In this document: in pieces, positions 12,159 to 43,257 of the stretch
Layout of the letters: every line of letters starts with the position of its first letter
Position numbering within the stretch: the first letter of the stretch is position 1
Source: Catajapyx aquilonaris
Taxonomy: Eukaryota
DNA: 46,190 bases
Assembly (NCBI GenBank): GCA_000934665.2
Contig: KZ538820.1
Coordinates: forward strand, 1 to 46,190
Reading direction: 5' to 3'
The notes under the pieces: generated by a model
The model's database searches: none
What the model saw: only the letters and a program-made list of their open reading frames with translations
What the model was told of the DNA's origin: nothing
Program-made: the position numbers and the translations under genes

Positions 12159-12175
12159 NNNNNNNNNNNNNNNNN
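12159..12175. other. Assembly gap within a poly-G tract
   Basis: Run of N. Confidence 0.99.
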
Positions 12176-18044: not shown

Positions 18045-18201
18045 TCACCCTTCGACGGATGATGAAATGAGGAGAGCGTCTTGACCTCCTGACCCCTCAT
18101 CTACCTCCTCTTCTTCTTCAATGGCCTGTTGAGGATGCCTGGATCGTATGTGTCGCTCCAGGTCACGTCTCCGGACCAACACCTTCCCGCAGTGCTCGCA
18201 T
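18045..18201 (-). CDS. PRDM13: PRDM13-like exon 5 (ZF4 and acidic tail)
   Basis: AAG| acceptor; CEHCGKVLVRRRDLERHIRSRHPQQAIEEEEEVDEGSGGQDALLISSSVEG*. Not present in the supplied ORF track. Confidence 0.92.
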
Positions 18202-19819
18202 CTTTGGGACACAAAATCGAGCGATGATGTCCAGGTTAACGAAGTAAATTAAGCGACGGACATACCTGTACGGAGTGTCTCCCTCGGCATGAAGTCGGAC
18301 GTGCTTGTTGAGATTGGAAGGGTCGCCGAAGGGACGCAGACACACCTTGCATTTCAGGGGCTTGTAACCAGTGTGGGTCCTGAAAATGACGTTTGCATTG
18401 TAAAGGTCACGCAATTGCGCACTCTGAGACAAAACGGTGGCATAATAGCAACAAAAACATGCAAAACATAACGAAATCATAATTATTACCTTGCTAACTA
18501 TAACGAGTTCCAACGCTACGAAAAAAAAAAGAAATTAAATTAAAACAGCGAATAAATTCAACAAACAGGGGCGAATGCTCTGGAAAATTTTATATGGGCG
18601 AGTCGCGTCCCATCTAGCGCGTCTCGAGCGCGTCCACTCTGAGAGCAAGTTGTTGTAAATGTCGTATTACCTGAGGTGGATCTTGAGGCCGTACTTCCTG
18701 GAGTAGAGCTTCCCGCAGTAGAGGCAGAGATGACCGTGCTTGGATCGTCCCAGGCTGCTGACCAAGGCTTCGACGTGGGCGTGGGGGTTGTGAGGAGACG
18801 ACGAGGACGACGCAGAAGCAGGTGACGCCGACGCCGACGCCGAAGAAGACGATGGCATGGGCGAAGGAGGAGGAACTGTGGCCATGTGGGGGATTGACAA
18901 GGAAAGAGGAAGAGGAAACGGATGAGGGAACATGCTTCTGGGTCGAAGAGGCCTGAAGGCGGAGGCTCCAGAGGTCAAAGGTGAGGTCAGAGACGGAGGG
19001 GTCAAGTACGGGATGGTCAGAGGGGGAGTCGATGGGGGCGGGAGGGGCGGAGGTGGTGGCAGCGCTCTGGCCAGGAACAGGGCGAACGACCCCGACCTGG
19101 ATTGACCTTTGCCCTGACCTTCGTGTCTGTCGCACAGCCTCCGCCAGAGCCTGTGTCGTCCAAGTGCCCCGCATTTCAAGGCCAGATGGACCTTGAGAGG
19201 ATTAGGCGCCTCGAAGACTCTCCCGCACCTCAAGCACAAGTACCGGCCTCCACCTGAAAATGACCTTTGTCACAACCAAGCTGACACACAAGCTGACCTA
19301 GCACTGACCTTGTATGTTGGCCGGGGTCAGGAAAGGTAGCCTAAGCTTGAGCGTGAGCTGGTCGTCAAACCATAGCCTGAGAGGATCTCCCCTTCGGATA
19401 TGTCGGATGGCCACCACCACCAATGACCCCCTCTGCTTCCGGTGACCCCCGGTCATCCTCAGCTGCAGATTCTGCTCCTGGCAGTCAGCAGCCAGTGGAA
19501 GTAGAGACGGCCATCCCTGGCTGTTGCCTTCCAGTCTACCGCCCGCTCTGACCCACACCTACCAACATCCAATAATTAACACTTTGCTATGGACTCAGAT
19601 GCAACTAAAGGCTCTCACCTGCATGTCTGCTCGGCTAGTTCGGTCACTGGTGAGGTCAGCAGGTGCAACAGCAGAAGAGCAGCTTCCGGCCGGGATGTCC
19701 ACACCAGCCACCGCTTCCATCTCTTCCTCCTCCACCGGGTCCTCCACTTCCTCCTCCTCCTCTTCCTCTTCCCTGCCCCTGGAGGTGTCTGGTTGTTCCG
19801 TCGCCGCCATCCTGCACAT
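18045..19819 (-). CDS. PRDM13: PR domain zinc finger protein 13-like (5 coding exons: 19819-19619, 19558-19309, 19253-18671, 18379-18266, 18201-18045; 1305 nt, 434 aa)
   Basis: Joined exons give the C-terminal part of a PR/SET domain (VVAIRHIRRGDPLRLWFD), an isolated finger (RYLCLRCGRVFEAPNPLKVHLALKC) and the PRDM13-type triple C2H2 array (GHLCLYCGKLYSRKYGLKIHLRTHTGYKPLKCKVCLRPFGDPSNLNKHVRLHAEGDTPYRCEHCGKVLVRRRDLERHIRSRHP). All four introns are GT-AG (60, 55, 291, 64 nt) with matching phases 0,1,2,2. The total length is divisible by 3 and ends in TGA at 18047-18045. Confidence 0.93.
18266..18379 (-). CDS. PRDM13: PRDM13-like exon 4 (ZF3)
   Basis: TTTTCAG| acceptor; THTGYKPLKCKVCLRPFGDPSNLNKHVRLHAEGDTPY; donor CAG|GTATGT. 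Confidence 0.95.
18671..19253 (-). CDS. PRDM13: PRDM13-like exon 3 (ZF1, Pro/Ser-rich linker, start of ZF2)
   Basis: TTTTCAG| acceptor; ends KIHLR at CAG|GTAATA, phase 2. Confidence 0.93.
19309..19558 (-). CDS. PRDM13: PRDM13-like exon 2 (partial PR/SET domain)
   Basis: TAG|GTGTGG acceptor; encodes WPSLLPLAADCQEQNL...AIRHIRRGDPLRLWFDDQL...PFLTPANIQ; donor AAG|GTCAGT, phase 1. Confidence 0.9.
19619..19819 (-). CDS. PRDM13: PRDM13-like exon 1 (acidic N-terminus)
   Basis: ATG at 19819 with an in-frame stop just upstream (alternative ATG at 19810); ends CAG|GTGAGA, phase 0, matching the next exon. Confidence 0.7.
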
Positions 19820-25719: not shown

Positions 25720-26066
25720 TTATTGACCCTTGGATATGCGCCTCAAAAATGAACTCACTTCTTCCTCCTCTTTGCTGATGCTTCCTCGGCTGCCTGCTGG
25801 TGGTTCCTCCATCCTGACCGAGGGCTGCTGCGACGGGGCCGGTGACTTGGTAGATCCGAATGACGGAGCTCCAATGTCGGCCACGACGTCCCTGCTCTCC
25901 TCCTCCTCCACCTCCTGCTCCCTCTTCCTCTCCTCCTCCTCCAGCCTCATCCTCTCCTCCTCCTGCTCTTTCATCCTGGCATCCTCCTCGTCGATCTCCT
26001 CTCGAAGCTTCGTCTCCAGACCCACGTACTGCTCCCGACGCGTGTCCGCCACCGCCTTTATTATCT
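25720..26066 (-). CDS. RSPH3: RSPH3 last coding exon (acidic coiled-coil tail)
   Basis: TTTGCAG| acceptor, phase 1; EIIKAVADTRREQY...FLRRISKGQ*; TAA at 25722-25720. Confidence 0.9.
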
Positions 26067-28748
26067 CTGCAAAGGACACACACACACGCATTATTGTCCC
26101 CCCAAACACTTTTGTCCACCTCAATCTCGCACTCACCGTCGACGATCTTCTTGCTGAGGGCGATCTTGAGCAGTTCGTTCTGCACCTCGTTCCTCACCCA
26201 AGGTTGGAACTTGTTCTCCACCTCTGCAAAAAGACACTCCGTCATGTTATATAATTATGTCGAAGGGGGGGGGCTCTTACCCTGCAAGACTGGGTCCTGG
26301 AGGAGTCCGTCCTGCGAGAGTCCGTTGACGACCAAGGGGACGAGGTCCTTGAGCAGCCTCTGGGCGAAGGTGTCCGCGGCCACCCTCTCCTCCAGCTCCT
26401 GCTGCTGGACCAGTTCCTCCGCCTGCTGCTGGATCCTCCTCTCCTTCTCCTCCTCCAGCCTCCTCTCCTGCTCCTCCAGACGCTGCTGCTCCAGCAGCTC
26501 CGCCCTCCTCCTCTCCTCCATGCGACGCTGCTGGTACCTCATCGCCTGCTCCTCCTCCTCCTCCAGGACCTCGATCAGGGACTGCTCCACCGTCTTGCCC
26601 ACCAGGACCTCCAGGATCGGACGCACCTCCGTGTCGAAGTCGAACAGGTCTCCGGGGTAGATCTGCGTCACGACGTCCAGCCCTATCTTGGCAGGGACGA
26701 ACAGGGGCGACCTGGGCCTCTCCGCGAAAGGGTCGGTCTGACAGGCCACCTCCTCCTCAGGGGGCTTCTCCCACAGCTCCTCCAGGTACTTCTCCGTCTG
26801 GACGTCGATGTGTCTCCGGCCTTCCACAGGCGGAGGGGTGGCCATGCCCTTGAAAGGGTACCGGGGTTTCCTCCTGCTCAGGTTACGGCGACGGAGGTCG
26901 GACATGCGGGAACCTCCTCCGGCGCTCTCGGGTACTCCGGCGCTCCCGGGGCCACCGGAGCTCATGTTCTGGGAGACCATGCTCGGAACCAGGCCCAGCT
27001 CGGTCATCGCGTTCTACCAGTCCCATAGGGGAAGGGGGAAGGGAAGAAGAAGAAGAAGAAGACAAGGGTCACCAGCGTTATAGCGGCTCGCACAAATCAA
27101 AGAGCTCTCAACAAGTGCCATTTTATACTATCATGCGCATCGCTTATTTTTGGGGAGGAAGGGCAGATATTATGGTCCCTAAATAAGTATGTACAAATGA
27201 AAAATAAGCACACCAATGTAATTTACAGTCACGTAAGCACTGAACCTCGACGCCATCGAGGATGACTCTCCTGATATTGCACTTATTGGCGTCAAAAAAC
27301 TGCGAGTTTCTCCCATTGTTCCCATCCAATAACGATGCAACTGGTAATATTATTTATCACAATTATTGTTTTCTCAGTTTCAGATGGATCGTATTACTGA
27401 GGAGAACATTATTGCGTAACGACAATATTCCTCTCTTGGTCGTTCTACAGAGGCTAGATTACTCAATTTTAAAAGTCATTGTATTGATTCAGCATGAGAG
27501 AGCTTCGTGAAATTTGACCGTCTATAGATTTCGTGTGTCAGTGTTATTGTACAACCAACTTTATCCTGTAAGTGACATTGACCCGAAAACAATAGAGTCG
27601 CATGGTTGGCTCTCATTAATCAGAGTACGTAAATGCAGTAGGCCTAATTCATTTATTATCCTATCTAATCAGAGTCTCCAACGAGGCTCGAGTCATTTGT
27701 ATTCATGTCCACAAACGGCCCCTTGTCGTATTTTCATTTGGCAGGTCCTTGCAACTATTTTTATAAGCAGATTAATGTCCGGCCTGTACTTTACACGTAC
27801 AATGTTGCAGAGAAAACTGCACGTCTGAAGCGCGTCTATATATACGAAAGGTTTACTCAAACACGACCAAGACGATGCAAGAGACACCTCGCCCACTGCT
27901 GGACCAAAAGGCCGACACAGCACCCGCCATGAAACTACACCAGTAACACAAGGCAAAATTCCTTCGACGGCAATCTACTTATTGCATGCAATCAAGCATC
28001 AAGCCAGATCTATATATGCCAATTGTTCATCAACTAACTCGAGGCCAAATTGTGTCGATGCTGGTATCGAGGCACTTGTCTATAAAGCAAATGCAGAGAT
28101 TGACGTGGATGAAGAAAAGTCGATTGAAAGTGATTAGGAAGAGTCGCAGCTTCAGCCTGTAAGCTAGACTGACCTGCGAACAAGAGAGTCGCATGGGTGG
28201 CTCTGAGCCCTCTCAGGATGTATATAGGAAGAACTCCATCTCAAACTCATCTCCCAAAAATGCAAAAAAGGCAAGGGCCTGGCCTTAGCCCCCACCATTT
28301 TTTGGCAAGGTCCTTTTAACGGGGCCAATAAGTCCCTCATTAATAGTCCAGAAGAGCGTTACGTAACACCCGATGTTCTCAAACAACTCAAAGCCGTACA
28401 ATAGCCGCCTTAATTTATGGGTTCAGCGATGGGACCGAGCAACTGCAATTATTATGCAACGATCACTGTCCCTTCATCAGCAGTACACGGCGAATCGCAC
28501 GCTACTAATTATATTATGGTCGCGGTGCAAGGACATCTGGGATTTATATAAAAAAAAGATGGAGAAGGACGCATGCACGTACTACACTCGACTACACACA
28601 CAATGCACTGTACACTACTCTATTTTACTACTCGCTTTCATTCCATATAGGGCGGACTCCTGGGCCCAATAAAAATGTCGGGTTAAAAAGAGAGAAGAGT
28701 TGCGTAACAAAGCCAATGCTCTTGAAACAGCGGCACGCGTGTGCTGCT

Positions 28749-28782
<34 letters not shown>

Positions 28783-31700
28783 GTAAATGCATGCTGCCGT
28801 GGCGTGTCCACTCTAGCAAAGCCTTCGAACTAGAGAAGCAACAGCACTATACATCTGCTTGAAACGGGATTGCTGTGGTGTAGACAATTTCATGAACTGT
28901 GAGGCTGCTGCGCGTATACTGTGCATTCTAACTTGGCCCTATATGATAATGCAGTGCTCATTTGCATGTGCCGGCCACTACAGACTGACACTGTGCAGCA
29001 GCAGCAGCGTGTATACCGTATGTATGTAATGTATACATCGCACAGTTCGCCCCCCTTGACACCAATGTGTACTACTACATTGTTGGGCCCTTGCTGAGCA
29101 CACTGACCTGCTGGGACAGCAGCTTGGCGTATCCGAAATACGGGTTCCAGCGAGGCTGTTGCTGGAGTGTTAGTATACACAACAGGGCTTGTTAATCGCG
29201 AGGAAAGCAAAGAAAAAAAACCACACACCATGCATATACACACACACCCAGCACACACACCCGATGATAAATAGGCTAAATGGTAATACATAAATACACA
29301 AAGTCCCGAGCTGGTTTCACACAGCAGGCGTGTCGTTGTCTTTGGAATGTTGCGCCCATCTCAACGACCAGCGACTGCACAGTGTGAATCCAGCTTTAAT
29401 TTTCACCCTGGATAATTTTGCTTTTAAAAGACAAAAAAAAAAAGCGAGCCCTTGCGCAATGTGGCCGTTACTCTTAACTGCATCCTGCAGCAAAAATCCG
29501 ATGCGGTCCGCATTAGATTCGCAGTCACGCAGCATATAGGGCAACCTGCGATGCAGATCGTGAGCCGTATCGCGCTTTTTTTTTTTCCTTTTTTTGTTTC
29601 GACCCCCCCCTCTCTCACCCTCCACCCAAACCCATTTGGGCTGTCAACCCAAGAATAAGAAAGCAGCAAGCCAGCAGACGATAAGGGGCCACAGGCTCGC
29701 CTCAAACTTTACGGGGGCCCCCAATGCAACTGTTAATAACCAAGCGGGTTGAAGGGTCACGCGAGAAAAGTGCAACCCTCAGGTGTACAGTCCGGAGCAA
29801 AAAAATACTAATTCCCCTCCACAATATGAACTCGCACACTCTCTTTTTCATATAATATTATGGTGTATAATAACGGAGTCGAACTCACGGTGGGCATCGG
29901 ATGTGAGAAGGTGTTGCCCCTGACGATCCTCCTGTCGTACATCAGGTGGTATCCGCTGGCCCTCCGACGTGCACCCATCATGTCTTCGTTGCTGGCTGTC
30001 CCGGCATCCCTGTTTGGAGGGTACATTGCTTTGGATTAGATGAAAAGAGGGGCAAGGTCGCTCNNNNNNNNNNNNNNNNNNNNNNACACACACACACACA
30101 CACACCTCGCTGCAATCGACCCCGCCATCACCCAACCCATCGGAACTTTCGTGGTGTCGAGGTCGTTAATCATTCAGGTGTAGTGCTGGCCTCTACACTT
30201 CGATTGGTTTGCCAGACACCACGTTTCCCACCGCATTTCGGGACCTCCGATGGGAATATATGCACCGCTTTCATTCCCTCTGGCCCTTCCCGCCCCCACC
30301 CATCCACAACAAACGACTTTTTTTTTCAACGACATTTCAAGAGGGAATCTGCTGGGAAGAGTCAGCATAAAAAGTCGTCCGATGTCAAACCAGCACAAAT
30401 ACCAATTCACACGGTGCCGTCTTGTTGTGTAAAGGACATGACGACGTCGAAAAGGAAGTAGTGTCGGACGAACACATCCTAGTGTTATGCAACCAACATC
30501 GTTCTACCAGTACATGAAAACGAAAATGCACAGTGGTGACTTATTGCACCGGATCAGAATGATTACAGTTTGGCAAAAACCCGTATTAAAAACGAGCCCA
30601 GAAAAGTTCGTTACTCAAACTTCGATTGGCTCAATTTTCCAGAATGAATATTTTTCCATAGAGGCGAGCAATCGGAACTATGTAAGCGATTAATTTCCGT
30701 GAATCAGATGATGAGAGTCGAGAGTTACGTTACGCGATTTTAAACGACTCGTGTCCAATATCGACGACTTCCGGCCACATTTGCGTCACCCATATATAAC
30801 ATAGAGATGTATGTGCCGATTAACTCCTGTTGCGCAAGCGTGTCCAACGCGTACAGTTCGTCCAGCCCACCCATTCAATAAACCATGTCTAATTGCGAAT
30901 ATTGATATATTGTGGTATATTTGCCGAACTGCCGCCCAGCCAAAAATTGCAGGCACCACACTGTATGGGGAAGCCATTCCCAAACGAAAATACAGTACCA
31001 GAAGCTGCAAAAGTTTGGGCCCACGAAAAAAACATCTGCCCTGATGGGCCAGCCAGCCAGCCAGACATAGACCTCTGATGGAAGTTTCCAAAATGTGAGC
31101 AAAAGGGAGATCTATAAATATAGTTGGCGCCTCGAGGCACGCAATCCCTTCTGCGCTGCAAGGGCACAACCAAAAAATGCATCCAGCCCTTTCTTAACCT
31201 GATTCAAGATATGGGAAATAAATGGAGCAACAACTTTTTTTTAAGACAAAAAAAAAACTTGCTGTTTTCCGTATAAGGTTAGCGGCAAATCATCCTTTTC
31301 CTCAATTCGTCGCGTCCATCAATATATCTTCAACGGGGACATGCTCGCTCAATGTATATAACCAAAATGGTATAGCTGTTGCCAACACCTAGCAAGTGCA
31401 AGGTCGACTCAATTATGCACTTTGTGCTGCTCCCCTTGCAATGTGGTCATATAAAAGGAAGTGCGTGTACTTGCGGCCATCTGTCAGCCTTTAAGACCCG
31501 TTTCGTGTCCGAGGCTTCAGGCAGTCGGCACGGAATGGTTTCCCCAAAAAAGGTGACGTCATCCTATCGCCCATTTCCCTCAACACACAAGAAAAAATCC
31601 CCGAATATGACCTCGTTTCAAGGAACCTCATCTGTATAGTAATAATTCGCAGCCATTCACCGGCAGCAGACGGAGGGGAAAAAAAGGATCGAAGCGACAA

Positions 31701-34700
31701 ACCAATCTCTATCGAAAAGCTATATGGTCGATGCATAGTATATACACAATAAGGCGTCGTGGTCAAACAAAACCGATTGAGGTCCAAGGAAAAAAATCGG
31801 GTTAGTTTATTGATGGCGGCTAATGTATAAGGCGGTGAAGTGCGGCAAAGTAAATTCGCAGCCTGTATACTCCCAGCCTGAATAATTCACAAACCGCAAC
31901 TGCTGGGCAGAAAACTGGGCAGAAAGTGAAAGTGCTCGTCATTATTCTGAGGCGTTGCACAGGTTATTTGCAGCGGACCGAATTCAACCATTGTCACGCA
32001 AACTGTTGTCCCCAGATCAATTCGTTCATTGTTCTTCGCAATCCAATTTTAGAGTCGTATATACGCAGCAGTTATAAACGGCGAGGCGTGGGACAGGGAT
32101 TCCCTGTTTCTATATAGGCCAAAGTGGCCTCATCACGGAACCGGTCAGGTAATAGACCCATCTTGACATTATCAAGCGGGAGTTACTGACCGCTACGATA
32201 CGGTAATCTCTGTGTGATTGTTCGACGCAAGATTTCGTGCTCAATTTATTGACATGTTGACGGGGGGAAAAAATAGCAGATGAAACACCGAGTAATGTGG
32301 TAACAACTTTCGTTTTCTACACCGTATAGTGTATTAGTCACAACCATATATAGATTAAGCAGCTACCTTCTTAATCCATATGGTCACAACCATTCCCCCA
32401 TTTTATTGGTTGGGCGAGGCATGCTCATCATGTGTGATTTACGTCGTGTGAAAGGGTTCTCCCCCGTGTAAGTGTGGGCTTTCTCGGGGTCCACTATTAC
32501 ACTAACGCCAGTAGTCACCCACAAGGAATGAGACGCAGGATAATGAATTAAAATATGGTATGCATTACACACATGCATGAAAACAACTCGGCAAACCCGC
32601 CAGATAAGGAGCGACATAATTATAGTTAATAACAGCTTATGATTTTCTTCTTCTTCTGGTGTAGTTAATAGTGGTTAAATTCCTGCTGTTAGTCGGGTGA
32701 GATAACCGTTTTGCATTCGCATCCGCTCGTTAAGCGCACGTAAGGCAAAAGCTCTCTTGCTTTTTCCGGTAGTCAAATAATGAGAGTGGTTTGGTTTGAG
32801 CATAACCAAGTGAGGCCCTCATATAAAACCATGGCCGAATTTCCTCCGCATAGCCCACAATAGAGCCCCCCCACTTCAAGTCATGGCCGACCAGTTACCC
32901 CTTTCTCTCTATGTGGAATGGTGGTGAGGATGGGGAGGGCTTAATCGGCTCATCTGGCACGAAACCCGGTTGCACGCCGGTATATATACGCACAGGGTGA
33001 CTCAGAAACTGCAGTGTCGAGTCCATTCATTCCTCTTCAGACTTTTTTTTTTGTCCATCCTGATATCACTGCGCTCTTCGAGAGGCCTTGTTGTTATATT
33101 AGAGCCCCCCTTTTCCGCCCCCTCTTCTGCAGCGGAAATCTTGTGGGAGGCCAGGCGAGATATATGGGCTTCTACGTGGGCAGGCAGGCCTACCAGCACG
33201 CAAAAGGGCTATTTAAAAATATTGCAACCGGCTGGTGCTGTATAAGGCCGTGGATCATTTGCAGTTGCAGCAGCAGTCCCAGCAGAATCAACCGCCCCTG
33301 CCACACTGGAACAGTCCGAAGTTACGTAAAAACTGCGCCGAAACTTATAATTACAAGGTGTTCGGAAGGGGGGTGACCAGGCCGGAGACATGCCAAGGTT
33401 GCGACAATAATTATTATTGCGCCAAGCCACCGGACAGATTAGACCGGATCGGATCGGAGCTGCTGGCCTTCGAAGGAAAATGGCCGATGGGGAACACTTA
33501 GGAAGAGGAGGAGGAGGCCCCTGTAAATCGGGCTTCCCTGCATGGACCAAGAGTCGGTTGGGTTGCGGCCATCGCAGGATCAACGCCCACAAGAAGCGAA
33601 ATGGTGGCCCATTGCATTGTAACAATCCACTGTAGCAGAATGAATGAATCAACAAACAGCAAGCGGGGCATCATAATAATGACTCAAGTGTTACTTATCA
33701 GAGCAATGTTTTTTCCCTCCCTTGCCATACCTGCTGGCTTTCTTTGCTTAATTTCACTTTTATCGCTTCCTGCTAATTTTAGGCGTTATCTTTTAATGCG
33801 CAGTTGCTAAGTTGGTTGCATAAGCCCGTCACCACTTCTGCCAAATGACTAATCGCAACCGTGCATGCCGTGTGAAGTCTTCCATCGCGCGGGCTTTCTT
33901 TTTCGGCCTCCGAATTTTCCTCGTTCCCTTCCCAAATAGACATTGACCCACACAACTGCTGGGCCGTTTCCATCGCTTCCGTCACGAGAACGTCCGATGA
34001 TTCCCTGTCACAACCAACCCCCAGCAAGATGTTGACATCATCGCCGCGGTCGGCACTTACTTGTCCTGTGGGCTGACGGACTGTTGCTGCCCTCCTCGGC
34101 CCCTGGAGGTGATGACCCTCGACCTCCTGAGGGCCAGGGAGTTGGCCTGCTGGTGCGGGTTGCTGCTCCCGTTGCTGCTGATGGGTCCGCCCTGGGGCGA
34201 CTCCCCGGCAGAGTCCTGGGGCGAGGCGGCTCCCTCGGGCCTCCTCCTCCGACCCAGGTTGTGCACCACCCTGGGCTGGCTCGAGTACGTGTACAGGATG
34301 ACCCCTTGGCCGCCCGGGGGTCGGAGGAAAGATCCGCGACGGACCACGGTGATGAAGGGCGGCCGGCCTTCCAAGGGGCCGCCCCGAGGCGCAGTCCCAT
34401 TCCGGGACACGCTCAGGGGACCCCAGCTGCGGCCACACACCCGGTTATATACTTTGTGTATGTGCAGGGTGGTCAACCGCCCAAGTCCATTTGTTCATCC
34501 CCAAACCTGCGGACTCGGGCAGTCCTCCACCCCGTAGTGTAACAGACACATACGGAATGCATCGTGGGCGTTTATTCCTGTCCGACTTCGTTTCAATTCC
34601 ATCACGCACAATAGCCGTTTTGTCCCTTTCCAAATTGCCCGCCAATCGATATCCGGACCAATTAGAGTGGACCGTAAAGAGAGTTGAGGTGGAGGGGGGA

Positions 34701-37700
34701 GGGTAAAGCAGTCTATTATAATGAATATGGGAATGCACCGACTTTGCCGGTACAACATCCCGTAGGTATTATTAAGGAGTTGGGAGGGGGTAGTGAGGCA
34801 GTGGGGAGAGGGGAAAAGGGAGGAAACTCTATATAAGGTTAGTAGGTTGAGAGGCAGATCAATAGGTTATAGTCATTACAGTGCAGAGATCCCCCTTGGA
34901 TAAAGGACAGTCTGCAAATAAATCCCGGCCCATTTGGTATTCCATATACCAACTCGATTAATATTTTGGAAAGAGCGGGGTTTCGTCACGCGTCCTGATG
35001 GGAACCAAAATGGAGGGGGCCTCGGACACACAGTCGACGTTTAAAACACAACGGAAAAGGTTTAAGACCGTGTTCACACACGAGCATCGTTATTGACTTT
35101 GTGTCGGTGCGGTTGGACGGTTGGCCTATAACAATCACAACCTGATTTGTAGATCCCAGCCGCACAATTCCCATAGCATAAGGTGGCAGTGACCGCGATG
35201 CCGTCTGAGTCAGTCGCACTTGGTTGTCATTTTCACATACCACTTAATTGCGCAGTTAATTTGCCACGTATCCATCCGATAAAGGCAATGTAAGGGAATT
35301 TTTTTACTCGTGCAAATATCCGTAGCATGCGATTATCCGCAAGTATAGATTCCACCGAATATTATGAGCGGTGCTGCGTATTTTCCGTTGCGTTAGAAAC
35401 GCCCGCATTAAGGCCGGTTCCACCATCCCACCCACCTGTCAGTCAATCAGTTTGTTAGCCGACTCCACTTATTTAAGTCACGCGTGGATAAAACGCTTTT
35501 AGACCAGCCCTTTTTTGGTGAGAGAGCGTCGTTGCCATAATGGCCGCAGATATAGCCTGAGTTTCAAAAAGAGAGAAACTTGCCCCTTTCCCATCTAATA
35601 GGTTTCATATTTATGTTTTTTTACAAAAAGAAACTTTGGTACCTCCTAGGGATGGTGGAACCAGTCACTATATACCGTGTGTCCGGGCCTGCAGGGAATC
35701 GTCGGCTAATTATTGTGGAACGAAACGAGTCGGACAGCAACCAGTGCGACATCATATAAATAGAGACCTGTTGGTAAAGGCCCTCCATCCAGCAGAGTTG
35801 TTTTGTGGTTGCTCTTGTTGCGGCATGGAAGCGCTGCATCGGTGGGGGGTGTAGGAGGGCCGTCCGTTGGGCGTCTTGCTGTCCTTCGCCCTGACCCCGT
35901 TGACGGAAGAAGCGGCGCCGTTGGACGCGGTGGACGCGGTGGAGGACGTGGAGGACGCGTCCTGCTGCAGCACCACTCTCTTCAGGCCGTTCTTTCCTCC
36001 GCTTATCACGGCGGCAGGGGGAGTCTCCTGATGGGGCTGCTGGTCTGGGCTTGTGGCAGGGGGCGACACGACCACCTGCTTGAGAGTGGGGCCGCCCATG
36101 GGCCCCACCACGGGCAAGATGGGCTCCGTCACCAGCATCGCTCCCTCGCTCACTGCCGCTCACGTCGCATGCCAGCCCTGCATGCCTCAGCCGGGCACGT
36201 GCTGTCCTCCTGGCGCATGCCCCATTCCCAAGCAGTTCCCATTTTTGGTTGATAGATCACACGGGGAAGGGGGGGGGGGGGCTAATAGACCCTCGCACCA
36301 AAAGCACCAGAGTCTATCGCTCCCTCGGCAAAAAGTGCTTTTCCGGGACAACAACACACTATATAATAACGCGACTGACAATATTGCCATGAAATAATTG
36401 CTGTTTGCATCACACACGCCATCATTGATTCCTATATAGCCCGGATGGATGAGCTGTATAGGGACATTCGATCACGATACTAATCATCCCGTCCCATGCA
36501 CCGTGTACTGTACAACCGAAGAGATCGAACACCCAGGTGAGCCGTAAAGAACTTATTGCTCATGGAGAGGAAGACCACATCGGATATTGCTTTCGAACCC
36601 TTCAAAGGATAATTATATCGTCGCACTTCATTAATTACCGTAACTTCAGTTCCAGCCATTTTATGCCATCAGTATATATACACGGAGTAGGTTCACTCCA
36701 GTTTGATCGTCCCATTCTCCAGGAACCGAACCGTTTCGCTTTATAGCGTACAAAGTATTACTGAAGAAAAAAAAAATCGAAAGTGAGCAGGGTACATGCA
36801 GGTGGCGAGCATGTATATGGATGTGCAGAACAACACCCTTCAAGGTCGCTGCCTTAAAGCCTCCGAATGTTTCGTGCACCTGACCAATACATCAAGGAGG
36901 AGGGGACAGTTGATGGGAATTTCACCACCTTTTTTGATCATGCCGATATGCTGGTATAGGGAATGTCCAGCCCTAATATCAATAGAGGTCATCGCAATTT
37001 ACGCAGCACCACGCACACACCAATCAACCAAAAACGTATATAAACCGTCGAGATTCTTTGAAAAGGGGGAATGAAAGCGAGCTCGTACCGGTATATAAGG
37101 TTTGTGGGACAGGGGGACAAGTCTAGGCAAATCGCAAATCGCGTGACTCTTTCGCCAAAGCAAGAAGCGATCATCTCCCTCCCCCCACCCCACCCCTTCT
37201 TTTACCCCGAAACCAATTTCCTATCCTCAACAAGCAAGAGGAGGACAAAGCCCGCGCAAAAATCTAGGATAACGAGATGGATCCACCCCGCATATAATCA
37301 TCCTAATGGGAGGAAGGACCCATGCAGATTCCTCCGGGTCGACGTTTCATGCCGGTCATTCCTTCCTCCAGCAAATTAAGTGTCGTTAATACCCATGGAA
37401 CGATTTGCAAGCGAATGTCGGTCAGGAGACACACATATCTGACACGCAGGGTCACGCACCGTCGAACATGTGCCCCCNGACAGGTTTTCCACGTGATTGT
37501 GTGAGACCCCCCCCGACGCCCTCCGTCGCGACACTATAGTGTATACAGTCCCCCCGCCCGCCGCCTTGACCTGCCTTAATATTGATCATGTTGTACTGGA
37601 TGCCTCCCTCGAAGACGAACACACAATCATTAATAATAATCCAGCAGAGAACCATTCAGCAGGACGCCAACTCATTCCGGATTGATGCCATTCACAGCCC

Positions 37701-40700
37701 CCGAATTTCGCAACTAGCTGTGGACAAAACACACGGTGCGTTTGTTTTTTGGCCCCCGACCTGGGGCCCCGGGGTTTGCTTGGACGCGATGCCGTGCTGG
37801 CCCTCCGATGAATAAGAAAACAGTGTTGATTGGCGCCGGTCATGCAATCGCTCATTGCGTCCCAGCTCATTCTATAGTTAACGTCAGAATAACCACAGTC
37901 CAGCGGTCAACAATATCGTGGGAAACCAATTCCATAAAATTGCATAAAAATATTAAAGCATTTTTTTTTTTTACCTTTATGAATTGCTCGATGGCTTCCA
38001 TATAATTTTATGCCTTTATTATATAGTTGTATCGAATCTTATTGAGGGAGAGAGAGCTTGAAAATGCTCGGAATAGGTTTTAACGTTTGAATTTCACAAT
38101 GCTCTTGTTGCGTGGTTGTTGTCAGCCACCGTTGCGCACGCTACTTTTCAGGTAATCGACAGACAGTCTCAGGCAGTGCAAAACACGTTGCGAAATGCAC
38201 AGTTTTCCTCCCAGCAGCACGAGCTTGGACGCCTCCTCGTCTGGCGTCGCCACCGCCCAGCTAGCCGTCCTCCCCAAAAACCAGCAGCGAGCGCTCTTTA
38301 TTCACTCGAATTATTGTCATCACAGGAGCTCCAATCCCTCAACAATGAACCCGATGGATGAGAGTATATATACACGAGGACCGGTCGTAGGCACCTGCGT
38401 CACACAGGAACATGTAATTACAAGCCGGTCGCATCAACATTTGCTGTGACGCGAGTCCCTCGCATCGGTAATGATACAAAACAAGTCCGTTTGCGTCACG
38501 TGGATCTATGGACCTCTCGTCGCTTTATTTGGCTTGATTCTTCTGCTGTCTATAGACTATATCCTCCAGCTCCGATGCATGATGCGGGATGGCCCGTATA
38601 TACGCCAATTGGCGTATATTCTGGATTCATTACACCATCTACACATACGCTGCTACATATCTTTGTCAACCGCCTGTGGATTCCAATCCGGATAAAGGGA
38701 GACCACACATATGCTTCAGACTCTATCGTATATTTTAAACTATCCAGCTAGAAATTCGCGGGACCCCTTAACGACCAGTCTCAAGGACAGAAACCTCCAG
38801 AGTCTCGCACCAAAGCCACGCAAGGTATATAATAAAAGGGGAGGCATTTCCGCGCACAAGTGTGTAAATATCTCGGGTCTGGTGGTGGAAATCAATGGCC
38901 GTCTGATGGCAGCACGACGTACAAAATCATTGCTGTTCAAACGGACACGTACACGCCACGCAATTAGTGCACCTGAGTTCCCCCAGCACGAAACCGCATT
39001 TTTTCCCCCCCTGGCCATTTGTATATAAAACCCGATTCCCGCAAATGACATTTACACCTGTTTTCGCGGTATTAGCCGCACATTGTCGTGTACAGCAGGA
39101 TATACTCCATTCAATCCCGGATCCTTATACTAGTGCAATCAATTTATTGGAAAATACCTCGCGGAACAGTCACAATTGTTTCTTTCACTATCTATACAAT
39201 AATATAATACCAGCAGACCTATACATTGTTACCTGACAGCACTGTAGGTTTGACATTTAAAAATAATCTTGCACCTATGAAGTTATGAGATCAGAGCGAA
39301 AAAGCAACCGCCATGTTTGACTAATTTTCCTACAACTAAATGATCCTATAAAACAAGGCAGAACTCTGCACCAAAATGGCGGGGATTTAGAAGAACATCA
39401 TTAAGTCGAACCTTCACTTATATTGTTGCTGACATGGTCTACCCCTCACTAGAGCCAAGAGCTCTTGCTATATATAGCCTTGAAAGGTCCAGACGAATAC
39501 CTGGTTAAATTACTGCTACTTCCAGGAAAAAAAGTGCGCTTTATTTCCTTGGACATCGACCGTTGTTCTGTATACGTATTGGGCCATACTGTTGCCGGTA
39601 CTTTTTTGGCACTTGCGGCTCTGATGATGACGTTTCTTCGGCAAGTGCATCTTTCCATGCTTATTTTCTCCGTCGGATGTTTGTCCGCCATGATAGTACC
39701 GCTATCTCTACCAAGACCTGAGAGTAGCAGGAGTGTGCATAGTGAGTCTGCGCCATCTATATACGTTATAATAAATAGAACTACGTGGTAAATCGGCGGG
39801 CCATGTCCCTCTCATATACTGATACAGTAATAGGTTTTGCCAAATTTTGGCAGCGGGTTCACTACAGTTTGTTTCTAAATGTGGCAGACGTTGCACCAAT
39901 ATTCTTTGCCTCTTGTTAACACCTCACAAGAACGAGGAATCTAATAGGCAGGCAATAAAAAGTTCGCAGGGTAATGAATGCACGTGATCTATACTCCGCA
40001 ATTGAGGGAGGCCATCAAGGTTTGCTGCAATTTAATGCACCTCAGACATGCAACTACATAGGGCCAACCTATAATATAATGAATAGTGTTTTTCCTGCCT
40101 CGTCGGATGCTATTGCCTGCGCCCAATGCATATAACATGCTGCATGGGTCTGCTGGGATTGGCGTTGCGTCACTCTGCACGCAGGCACACTTTGCTTGCA
40201 TTGCTGTTCGATACTCTATAAACAGCCCTGTCGTATACGGAAAAGGCATGGTCATTTGCCAGCATGCAGGGTTAAAGACCTCGTGTCAGGCCGTTGCTGT
40301 TGCCATGAGGTAGAAAGAGCGAAGGACCAATAAAATAAAAAAATCGGGAAGGAATGACCATTTTTTCATTTTTTGTTTCATTGTCCGAGGGTGTACATAC
40401 ATTCCATCTGCTGTACATCAGGGACCTTTCAACAATGAAGGCGATTATTACACACCTTCACGCCCACGAAGAGTGTCGCCCGGAAAATGAGCAGAGTCGG
40501 AGATCGACAACGCCACATGAGATCCGGAAGTCCACTCGACAACTACATGTATCTTCGGAGTGCATCAGCTCATCTATGCATCTACATTTTTTTGTTCGAC
40601 TCTCTTTTCTTTCGGTCTTATGGGTCTTGGGCGTGGATTGCTCCTTTTTATTCCCGGAGAAAAAGGAGGTATATATAGTAGGTGCTGGTTGGAGGAGGGG

Positions 40701-43037
40701 GAAAAAAAAGAGAGATGGGAGAGAGATATTCCCCAATTTGTTCTCCATCCCCCTACCTTATCTTCTCCGTCTCCCTCGTTCCATTCCGATTCGTTTACAA
40801 CACCTCCCGACAAGACGAGATACCACGGACAGAAATGGAAAATAATGCAGCCTCGCCTTCCGGAAACACCTACCTACCTCACTTTGCATACGTGTGTCTC
40901 CTCACAAAAATCTCCAGGATCGGTCAACCCCCGTGGCGTTGCTCCAGGTTATTACAAACCCACGAGGGTTATTTATTTTTTTTGCACGAGGAAGACCTCT
41001 CAGTGTGAAGCAGGTGGTACTTTTCTTTTAACGGAATAAAATGACAAAATGGCTTCCGATAATAATTAGACTCGCATAATTCATGTCAGTCAATCTTTGG
41101 ACTCGTTCAAATCTTTTATTTCGCGACATCAAATTGCGACTCTTTCCAGAACTGTCCAGAGGCCTTTCATATATAACTATGCCAAACTCAATACCATGTT
41201 TTTCATATCATTTTGTCAGAGTGCATGTTAGGCTTTTGGAGTGATTGCTGCTGGGGCTGGCTCCCGCAATAATATTATGCATTTTTTGACAGCAATTCCG
41301 CAATAATAAATGAGCTCGGGTTCCACTTTTTTCGACGTGGAAAAAGCCGCCCCACAATCCCGCCAAGATCACAACTGCACAATTTAGAAAGGTTTACTGT
41401 TATATCAGATTATATGGAGGCTCTCCAAATGTCGCGTGTTGTCATCAGCACCGTGCTCGACGCGGTAATGGCGAAAAAGACTGTTTTTTTTCCAGTCCCT
41501 TTATTGCAGTGCTGTTACAGTCGATATTAATTTGTATATAGGACCTTAAAGCGTCCATTTTACGTTACTTGATGTCGAGGTCTGTTCACAATGTTACGAG
41601 TCAAAGTCTCTCAATTGAACAACTCCCTCCTCCGCACAGAAGGTCGCGTATATAAAAAGCCACGGTCGCTGTTTTACGTAATGAAATCTCAGCAGGTAAT
41701 GTGTCTGACACTGCCCGGCACCCAGATCGATTGATCTCTTCTGGAATCAAGCACACACACACAATATATTTAGGAAGTATAGGGAAGGAACGAACGAAAA
41801 AATGGCATATAAATGTAAATAAAAATGTGGCTCCATGTAGAGGCATATATATAGAGACCTGAAAAGTCACGCGAGGGAATATTGACAGGACCTTTAGTGG
41901 TGCATCAAAGCAGGGGCTCTCTTGCTCCTGCAGGGACACCCATTTCATCGAACAAACAGCGTTAAATTTAAAGGATGGGGCTGCGGATGGGAGGGGGGGG
42001 GCGGAAAAAAGGGAAAAGAGCTTGGGATGCGACAAGAATGCGATAAAAGTGTGGGGAGCAGGATGAGAAGGAAAGAAAAAAAAAGAGGACCGAGAGATTA
42101 AATTAAGGAGATGGAAACTTTCTTGAAGGAGGGAGAGAGGGAAGGTCCAGACTCCCAATTGCCCCAAGTTGCAATTCGCATCTGGCAGGTAATTCATTTG
42201 CGCCATTACCATGCATAAAAAGGTTGCTGCTGGGAAAAGGGGGGGGGGGAGAAAGAACAACGTTTTAGCCTAATTTCATTTAGAGGGGGTGGGGGTCGAT
42301 ATATAATACGAACCACCCTGTATATCGCAATTGGAAAATTGATAGACGTTATCGTCACATCTTGAAAAAGCAGCCTGCGCAAAAACTACAACGGCCAGAA
42401 ATTGGGGTTGGCCATACTAATTGCAAACTTCAAAATCGATATTTTCCATGAAATTCGAGCTGTACATATATTTATACTGAGGCCACAAAAACAAAAGGAA
42501 TTGAAAAATAGATTCGCGAGCGGTCATGCATAATATCTGAGCCCCATTACGGTATAAATCGACCAGAGGATAAACTATTCATAGATCAGCGCCTGTCTGT
42601 TCCCCTCCCCAACCCACCCAATGTACTATACAGATATCAGGTGCGTCTATTTCGGATGGTCCGTGACCAGCACACGTGGCCACATGCGCAATGCGTCATA
42701 ACTATGCTCCTTGTATAGAGCACATGCAACAGGTATACTCGATCGCCATGCATATAAAGGGAGGACTTTCCCAGAATATTGCATAACCCGCGCATATAAA
42801 TAAGATAGTGCCGTCTGTGCCGACCAACATTTCATATATATAATTATGATTGAAGGAGACGTGCCTGTATGGTCCTTTGTTCCTCCTGGCTGCGATGGGT
42901 GTTGGCTCGCTTGAGAACGTGTACATGGCTTGACCACTGGCTGACCCCCTGGCCACCATTCCCCCCTGATCTGGAGGCCCTGCGATCACGGCCCCTCTGC
43001 TGCCTCCTCCTCCGCCTCCAGTGCTGCTACCCGGCAT
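25720..43037 (-). CDS. RSPH3: Radial spoke head protein 3 homolog. Isoform A exons 43037-42865, 30009-29889, 27013-26281, 26223-26137, 26066-25720 (1461 nt, 486 aa); isoform B replaces the first exon with 36138-35768 + 34426-34061 (2025 nt, 674 aa)
   Basis: Conserved RSP3 blocks in order: YT[F/Y]SSxP, LMYDRRIVRGNTF, TPPPVEGRRHIDVQTEKYLEEL, CQTDPF..RP.SPLFVPAKIG.DV.TQI.PGDLFDFD.EV.PILEVLVGKTVEQSLIEV, a coiled coil, and EVE.KF.PW. Splice phases agree at every junction. Confidence 0.88.
26137..26223 (-). CDS. RSPH3: RSPH3 penultimate exon
   Basis: TTTGCAG| acceptor; EVENKFQPWVRNEVQNELLKIALSKKIVD; donor G|GTGAGT; flanking introns 57 and 70 nt. Confidence 0.92.
26281..27013 (-). CDS. RSPH3: RSPH3 core exon (LC8-binding xQT motifs, amphipathic helices, coiled coil)
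   Basis: Long polypyrimidine tract then TAG|AACGCG (phase 0); ends CAGG|GTAAGA (phase 1); unmistakable RSP3 domain sequence. Confidence 0.95.
28749..28780. repeat. (CAG)n microsatellite in an RSPH3 intron
   Basis: Direct reading. Confidence 0.95.
29889..30009 (-). CDS. RSPH3: RSPH3 shared internal exon
   Basis: CCAAACAG| acceptor (phase 2); DAGTASNEDMMGARRRASGYHLMYDRRIVRGNTFSHPMPT contains the RSP3 MYDRRxxRGNT motif; donor ACC|GTGAGT phase 0 joins 27013. Confidence 0.9.
30064..30085. other. Assembly gap next to a (CA)n tract
   Basis: Run of N. Confidence 0.99.
34061..34426 (-). CDS. RSPH3: RSPH3 alternative 5' exon B2
   Basis: GC-rich open frame with LYTYSSQPRVV motif; strong donor AA|GTAAGT in phase 2 joins 30009 in frame. 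The acceptor (CCGCAG| at 34427) is less certain. Confidence 0.7.
35768..36138 (-). CDS. RSPH3: RSPH3 alternative first coding exon B1 (Pro/Ser-rich, low complexity)
   Basis: GC-rich ORF from ATG 36138 (MLVTEPILPVVGPMGG...) with an upstream in-frame stop; weak donor AG|GTCTCT in phase 2 compatible with B2. Confidence 0.55.
42865..43037 (-). CDS. RSPH3: RSPH3 alternative first coding exon A
   Basis: acaATG start; MPGSSTGGGGGG...MYTFSSEPTPIAARRNKGPYR; ends AG|GCACGT (GC donor, phase 2), giving 'PYR|D' on joining 30009 as in the RSP3 N-terminus. Confidence 0.72.
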
Positions 43038-43257
43038 TGTTTCTGTCTGGGGTCCACAATTTAACAACGCGAACTGACGACAACTATACTCGAAACACGC
43101 GCGGATGTTCCTCGACTCTTAAGCATGTCCCCTCGGTGTGGACCACATGGAACTAACTGACCGCCCCTTTCTCCAGTGGTCGTCAACATCAACAAACATG
43201 GGGCCATCTTGGGCGGGAGTACACAACCAACAAACGCAGTGTGGGTGGCCACCGTGG

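Follow-up and report, generated by a model that had tools for sequence, protein, structure and literature searches.

Two candidate N-terminal arms for one RSPH3 gene in Catajapyx aquilonaris

Radial spokes are anchored to the doublet microtubule by the scaffold protein RSP3/RSPH3, whose axoneme-targeting region has been mapped in Chlamydomonas to residues 1-85. Here we consider a gene of this family in Catajapyx aquilonaris (assembly GCA_000934665.2, contig KZ538820.1, positions 1 to 46,190; this whole stretch of 46,190 nucleotides (nt) is referred to as the window). In this gene the common body of the protein appears to be preceded by two alternative N-terminal segments, or arms, each with its own copy of the RSPH3 docking motif.

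More than one form of the protein has been described in a few other organisms. In PMC12399478, the conserved N-terminal region of RSP3 is cited as holding the axoneme-targeting domain. According to the same text, Tetrahymena Rsp3A, Rsp3B and Rsp3C differ in their N-terminal features, are associated with different spokes (RS1 versus RS2) and possibly form heterodimers; three RSP3 orthologues are not found in Chlamydomonas or in animals, unlike in Tetrahymena. No other instance of RSP3 heterogeneity is as well documented. Among animals, the mouse has two forms of RSPH3, Rsph3a and Rsph3b; mouse structures are based on Rsph3b, and the mouse spoke paper has nothing on the N-terminal motif. In Drosophila, the RSPH3/AKAP homologue CG32392 is reported as an exception among spoke genes in being expressed in both testis and chordotonal neurons (PMC6367277). 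The 9+0 cilia of chordotonal neurons have no spokes, yet knock-down of CG32392 affects chordotonal function, and the gene is listed there as not dRFX-dependent. In the main texts searched we found no paper describing alternative N-terminal exons of RSPH3, and neither "RSP3" nor "RSPH3" occurs in the main text of a 2023 axoneme structure paper (PMC10266980).

A gene with two candidate arms

An RSPH3 gene of arthropod type occupies the minus strand of the window from 43.1 to 25.7 kb. The open reading frame (ORF) at 27013-26258 matches the Pfam family PF06098 (Radial_spoke_3) with an E-value (E) of 1.3e-74 and 250.9 bits, against a cut-off of 26.4. A homologue search with it found 235 proteins at E <= 0.001 out of 7,996 candidates scored. 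The top identity is 66%, and the searched collection therefore contains neither Catajapyx aquilonaris nor a close relative. Counts over 120 homologues given below refer to the best 120 of these 235, all 120 of which carry PF06098.

On balance we favor the reading of a single RSPH3 gene whose second exon is reached from either of two 5' arms, which are alternatives and mutually exclusive. The shared exon, at 30009-29889 on the minus strand, encodes (R/K)DAGTASNEDMMGARRRASGYHLMYDRRIVRGNTFSHPMPT and includes MYDRRIVRGNT, a peptide that occurs once in the window; its acceptor is AACAG/G and its donor ACC/GTGAGT. Arm A would be a single short exon (exon A, 43037-42865, minus strand, 173 nt) that opens with an ATG and runs for 57 codons and 2 nt, ending in phase 2. 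Its peptide has Met and about 38 residues before YTFSSEP, followed by a basic run (MYTFSSEP...RRNKGPY(R)), and it ends ...GQAMYTFSSEPTPIAARRNKGPY, with the junction codon giving R, so that the arm would close on ...YR. Arm B would consist of exon B2 (34426-34061, minus strand, 366 nt), most likely after exon B1 (36138-35768, minus strand, 371 nt), a candidate first exon with its own ATG, 123 codons and 2 nt that also ends in phase 2. The arm so assembled would have a leader rich in Pro and Ser (B1 is Pro/Ser/Thr-rich), then the elements of B2, namely RPPFITVV, a YTYSSQP motif within LYTYSSQPRVVHN, and a long spacer of 77 residues; B2 ends in phase 2. Each of the two proteins would thus carry exactly one docking-motif copy, placed in the N-terminal region with a Y[TS]xxxxP motif followed by [MF][YF]DRR[VI]VRGNT that is cited as the axoneme-targeting part of RSP3, and everything from the MYDRRIVRGNT exon onward would be common to both.

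The shared exon and B2 both start at the third base of a codon, and four joins are in frame: A to shared, B2 to shared, B1 to B2, and A to B2. When the DNA was read and translated anew, the coordinates and phases of A, B1, B2 and the shared exon in a preliminary description of this stretch proved correct, as did its claim that A could be spliced in frame to B2, both being phase-2 compatible. The product lengths needed a small adjustment, from 486 and 674 amino acids (aa) to a predicted 485 aa for the A arm and 673 aa for the B arm (485 plus the 564-nt difference between the arms), in both cases assuming omission of an optional micro-exon, which would add 18 residues, and read-through to the stop at 25723.

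To count the motif we used two profiles, one of 30 residues built from 24 short RSPH3 N-termini (the A-type profile) and one built from 17 insect-type homologues (the long-arm profile), and ran both against every one of the 1,893 six-frame ORFs in the window (77,991 aa). The A-type profile matches two ORFs and nothing else, that of B2 with E 2e-5 and that of exon A with E 6.8e-4, the next best E being 0.47. There are therefore exactly two copies of the YT-type motif in the window, one in exon A and one in exon B2, both on the strand of the gene and both 5' of the shared exon. The preliminary description had held that RSP3 normally has one such motif, and this is borne out: with a strict pattern 36 of the 120 homologues have one copy and none has two, and when the pattern is loosened one copy is found in 62, none in 57 and two in a single protein. 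The profiles, together with comparison of the peptides with the N-termini of relatives, likewise uphold the claim that both arms are RSPH3-type N-termini upstream of one shared exon.

B2 is clearly the exon of an insect-type long RSPH3 arm. The long-arm profile matches it with E 4.9e-10, a phmmer search of B2 against 126 RSPH3 proteins gives E 1.1e-8, and tblastn of four homologues (P0034, P0008, P0113, P0005) against B2 gives E from 2.3e-4 to 5e-3. The peptide contains ...RPPFITVVRRGSFLRPPGGQGVILYTYSSQPRVVHNLGRRRR..., and where it has RPPFITVVRRGSFLRPP...VILYTYSSQPRVVHNLGRRRRPEGAA the cockroach, katydid, termite and damselfly proteins have a collinear KPLFITTVKSGKFLDPP...LLYSFSSQPRVLHQHHHRAKCEAAA. 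Three elements of B2 follow each other in the order seen in insect long arms: RPPFITVV..G.FL.PP, then LY[ST][FY]SSQPRV, then a basic run followed by E-A-A. The first of these is the counterpart of the KPxF[IV]T.V motif, which is present in 18 of the 120 homologues, 17 of them with insect names and one unnamed. An exhaustive search of representative proteins with B2 returned one match, a 150-aa long-arm fragment (P0131, E 8e-4). None of the 539 candidates in a word-indexed search of longer proteins scored, and none of the 595 metagenome stretches that matched the B2 pattern was confirmed.

Exon A resembles the compact kind of N-terminus that is found outside the arthropods. Its best phmmer matches are short-form RSPH3 proteins, and tblastn of residues 4-31 of one homologue (P0017) against exon A gives 43% identity with E 0.054; the long-arm profile also reaches E 0.054 on this exon. 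Where exon A would meet the shared exon, the predicted ...NKGPYR/DAG... resembles the ...KKYRDAA... and ...RKYRNP... of the short forms P0010 and P0006. Neither exon A nor B2 nor the shared exon has a Pfam match, and the one Pfam hit to B1 is a chance match (E 0.42).

The two arms also resemble each other. An alignment of exon A with B2 covers the YT motif and a second sub-motif, MVARGS/VVRRGS, with E 0.001 and about 34% identity over 47 residues, which fits an old exon duplication. That same level of identity led us to discard an assembly artefact or a recent duplicate as the source of the two arms. The duplication of a first exon put forward in the preliminary description is therefore supported insofar as exon A and B2 align, but it is not peculiar to this genome, as both arm types occur in other pancrustaceans.

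Both arm types in other pancrustaceans

The closest parallel is the barnacle Amphibalanus amphitrite, for which RefSeq has proteins with a short arm (XP_043226538/9; P0127, P0072) and proteins with a long arm (XP_043244857-60; P0128, P0098, P0126, P0129). As in the window, each barnacle arm has one Y[ST][FY][SA]S.P motif, and the cores behind the two arms agree in all of the 384 residues compared (384 of 384). Both barnacle arms meet the core at one and the same point, and the junction residue is K or R, as expected of a phase-2 split codon and as in the window. Unlike B2, the long barnacle arm has no match to the KPxF[IV]T.V pattern, and the barnacle shared exon has diverged, with LMNDKRLIKTGN where the window has LMYDRRIVRGNT.

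Both types are present in the damselflies (Zygoptera) as well. Isoforms X3 and X4 of Ischnura elegans (P0125, P0006) have a short arm, MRTMETVLPVNPQYTYTFSTRP...RKYRNP, and the Hetaerina americana protein XP_071440387 (P0005) has a long arm, KPLFVTTV...LYSFASRPRV..., on a core near-identical to that of Ischnura elegans. Unlike the gene proposed for the window, the damselfly arms are thus seen in two species and not in one gene. In a beetle, Exocentrus adspersus, one gene model (P0053) has a short-arm motif upstream of the long-arm motifs, which is the 5'-A...B-3' order of the window. Long forms from other insects, including Periplaneta (P0008), Anabrus (P0034), Cryptotermes (P0113) and Homalodisca (P0071), share with B2 the order KPxF[IV]T.V..G.FL.PP, LYSFSSQPRV and basic/EAA. 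They differ from it in the spacer up to MYDRR, which is 48-89 residues long in these proteins and 100 in the window, in the linker between the motifs, which is shorter in the window, and in the leader, to which B1 has no similarity. The distance from the motif to MYDRR also speaks for two arms: arm A has 42 residues there and arm B has 100, the same order as in the homologues (25-34 in 14 short-arm proteins, 48-89 in 16 long-arm proteins), although both window values lie above the homologue ranges.

Since both arm types occur in a barnacle and in insects, the layout should be older than the split between these two groups. The two-arm arrangement is probably an old, shared pancrustacean feature that is already represented in RefSeq isoform sets, and the arms themselves probably go back to a duplication of the N-terminal exon before the barnacle-insect split.

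Splice signals, coding bias and alternative readings

A number of observations weigh against two working arms. Those from relatives are that the annotation places the two barnacle arms at two loci, each on a contig of its own, which may be haplotigs or a recent duplicate; that among the homologues we saw no single RefSeq gene carrying both arms as separate isoforms; and that a search with residues 1-165 of the Hetaerina arm gave two matches, itself and the Anabrus protein, and no long-arm isoform of Ischnura. The donor of exon A, CAG/GCACGT, is GC and not GT, a correction to the preliminary description, and it has a mismatch at +4. The match of this exon to the short-N-terminus profile is modest, the residues after its motif are PTPIAARR where homologues have PRxV, and its codon score of -3.2 (GC content at third codon positions, GC3, of 0.60) is matched or beaten by 536 of 866 null windows. 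On the other arm, the acceptor of B2 is preceded by a poor pyrimidine tract, the B1 donor, CAG/GTCTCT, is weak (score -2.5) with no better GT donor in any phase, and no homologue of B1 was found among the 126 RSPH3 proteins (best E 1.3). Finally, the codon model behind the codon scores was trained on only 558 codons of the window.

The lack of codon-bias support, the GC donor, the modest profile match and the divergence after the motif would all suit a reading in which only the long arm is used and exon A is what is left of the short first exon, decaying or silent, or else a chance match, and most annotated insect RSPH3 homologues are indeed long forms. We nevertheless regard this as unlikely. 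Exon A still has an ATG, its frame is open and it has two donors in phase 2, the second being a weak GT site at 42829 (AAT/GTTGGT, score -1.5); its predicted junction reproduces the ...YR/D of short forms; and short arms are annotated in both the barnacle and a damselfly. There is, moreover, a candidate arm A core promoter at the expected place (43077-43043, minus strand), with an initiator (Inr) TCAGTT whose A+1 lies at 43075 and a sequence AGACAG resembling the downstream promoter element (DPE) at +28..+33 (5/6 positions). The match, which lies 38 nt before the ATG of exon A, is no more than one to a consensus, and there are 11 such sites (at least 5/6) in the whole window on both strands. 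The GT nearest to the end of exon A, at 42861/42860, had also been considered as a donor and was rejected (phase 0, score -8.7).

Returning to the two-arm reading, it is codon bias and phase that point to B1 as the exon feeding B2, and this is most likely how arm B begins. The B1 ATG at 36138 is the first of its ORF, and the codon log-odds of B1 are +27.4 (versus -45.9 and -40.4), a score matched by 7 of 384 null windows, with GC3 0.80; B2 scores +17.4 in the proposed frame, matched by 13 of 390, with GC3 0.85. The null windows include microsatellites and possibly other exons. B1 and B2 are also the only sharp GC peaks (0.68 and 0.71) between 30.2 and 42.8 kb, where no other 300-nt bin exceeds 0.55. 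Upstream of B1, an Inr with only 3/6 DPE positions lies 238 nt away (again a consensus match only), and nine matches to the X-box (RFX) were found in the window, none of them near either start. Long trinucleotide microsatellites at about 3.9-4.1, 11.7-11.9 and 14.4-14.7 kb, visible as I/N/M/Y/D runs in the ORF translations, inflate the codon null models.

It is conceivable, and somewhat less doubtful than a relic exon A, that B2 is real but that B1 is not its partner, in which case some other, unrecognised first exon, or else exon A, would feed B2, and B1 would be GC-rich DNA that does not code or would belong to a different transcript. B1 has no homologue and no alternative donor with a score above 1 to replace its weak one, GC-rich DNA in this region is open in several frames, and the phase 2 end of exon A also fits the B2 acceptor. 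Such a reading has to contend with the strong frame-specific codon signal of B1, whose frame is the very one that opens with the B1 ATG and closes in the phase required by B2, and with the position of B1 under one of the only two sharp GC peaks of the interval. The absence of a homologue for B1 is itself unsurprising because the leaders of insect long arms are poorly conserved, as illustrated by the Hetaerina arm with its one distant relative.

A further consequence of the shared phases is that A, B2 and the shared exon could be spliced in tandem, and a protein with two docking motifs might be the main product or an additional one. There is a possible precedent in the beetle Exocentrus adspersus, where KAJ8913498 (P0053) has YTFSSSP at residue 37, then FVTTV..., then YAYASQP at residue 249, which is the A-then-B order of the window. 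This protein may have arisen from an erroneous joining of two alternative first exons, or it may be a genuine tandem isoform; being a "hypothetical protein" model in GenBank, it is weak evidence for the latter. With at most one motif in 119 of 120 homologues, and with RefSeq isoforms of the related beetle Anoplophora that begin the long arm with a short ATG exon of its own, we consider a tandem product improbable. Least probable of all, to the point that we give it hardly any credence, is exclusive use of the short arm, with B1 and B2 as a dead duplicate or a separate transcript. Apart from the weak B2 acceptor and B1 donor nothing specific points to it, and B2 is the strongest of the three 5' exons in homology, codon bias and donor (CAA/GTAAGT, score 5.5, at the end of an exon whose acceptor requires two carried nucleotides) and is orthologous to the arm of most annotated insect RSPH3 proteins. 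The anatomy of the sequence, the homology of each arm and the occurrence of both arm types in relatives are shown here; that both arms are transcribed and spliced in this organism, from two promoters and with B1 feeding B2, we infer.

Downstream of the junction, the body common to both products would comprise the Radial_spoke_3 domain, a Glu-rich tail and, optionally, an 18-codon micro-exon. The AKAP (RII-binding) helix and the Dpy-30-binding helix of RSPH3 would lie in this shared body and have no bearing on the two arms. The micro-exon, at 29161-29108 on the minus strand, encodes QQPRWNPYFGYAKLLSQQ in phase 0-0, and a TACTAAC branch-like site lies just upstream of it. In tblastn searches it matches the Hetaerina protein at 84% identity (E 2e-6) and the Anabrus and Cryptotermes proteins at 94%. 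Pairs of isoforms differ by a micro-exon at the same spot in Ischnura (X3 versus X4, 17 aa), in Anoplophora (17 aa) and in Amphibalanus (16 aa, QPRWNAYFANARALSN, that is, QPRWNAYF...). As the same insert separates isoform pairs in a damselfly, a beetle and a barnacle, the micro-exon is conserved in pancrustaceans.

The main exon, with the Radial_spoke_3 domain, runs from 27013 to 26281 (minus strand), its donor having been re-checked for an off-by-one at 26282, and it is followed by a coding exon at 26223-26137 (minus strand), (E)VENKFQPWVRNEVQNELLKIALSKKIVD, and by the Glu-rich C-terminal exon at 26066-25723 (minus strand), whose 3' end is uncertain. This last exon may run to the stop at 25723 or may use a GAA/GTGAGT donor near 25757, 11 codons before the stop; we found no further 3' exon beyond that donor, although the C-terminal exon may not be terminal. 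An assembly gap, seen as a run of N at 30064-30085 (unstranded), adjoins a (GT)n tract in the long intron, 55 nt upstream of the shared-exon acceptor, and the 3' end of that intron is therefore incompletely known.

In the window as a whole there are five such runs, 42 bases altogether (12159-12175, 23577, 30064-30085, 37478 and 44360). A neighboring gene at 18166-19558 on the minus strand codes for zinc fingers of the C2H2 type, with PF00096 matches in Pfam at E 7e-6 and 4.5e-5; an upstream ORF at 19301-19558 has no Pfam match.

Possible functions and comparison with described forms

If arthropods keep two interchangeable docking arms on one gene, the choice of promoter could yield heterogeneity of spokes, or of spoke proteins, in animals. 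The use of Drosophila CG32392 in cilia without spokes (PMC6367277) offers a tangible ground for expecting two targeting forms, and the Tetrahymena paralogues likewise make a functional split plausible. The split between sperm flagellum and sensory cilia suggested in the preliminary description would fit the Drosophila finding. As a speculation to which we give a low probability, the two arms may be an ancient pancrustacean address switch, with one arm docking RSPH3 as the spoke stalk in 9+2 sperm flagella and the other placing the same AKAP-type scaffold on the spoke-less 9+0 cilia of chordotonal neurons. Such a switch would explain why RSPH3 is the only spoke gene in Drosophila to be expressed and needed in chordotonal cilia, and the published puzzle of its presence there (PMC6367277) would become directly testable. 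A variant of the same idea is that the two arms might form heterodimers or mark RS1 versus RS2, like the Tetrahymena paralogues. For annotation, the practical consequence is that RSPH3 models in arthropods should include both first exons and the optional micro-exon.

Of the described forms, Drosophila CG32392 is a member of the same gene family in an arthropod, and its isoforms are not discussed in the accessible part of PMC6367277. The Tetrahymena variants (PMC12399478) are unlike the arrangement in the window in being separate ciliate genes and not alternative first exons. The arms proposed here would be alternative beginnings of a single gene. Mouse Rsph3a and Rsph3b, for their part, are tandem gene duplicates that differ little from each other, and not alternative arms.

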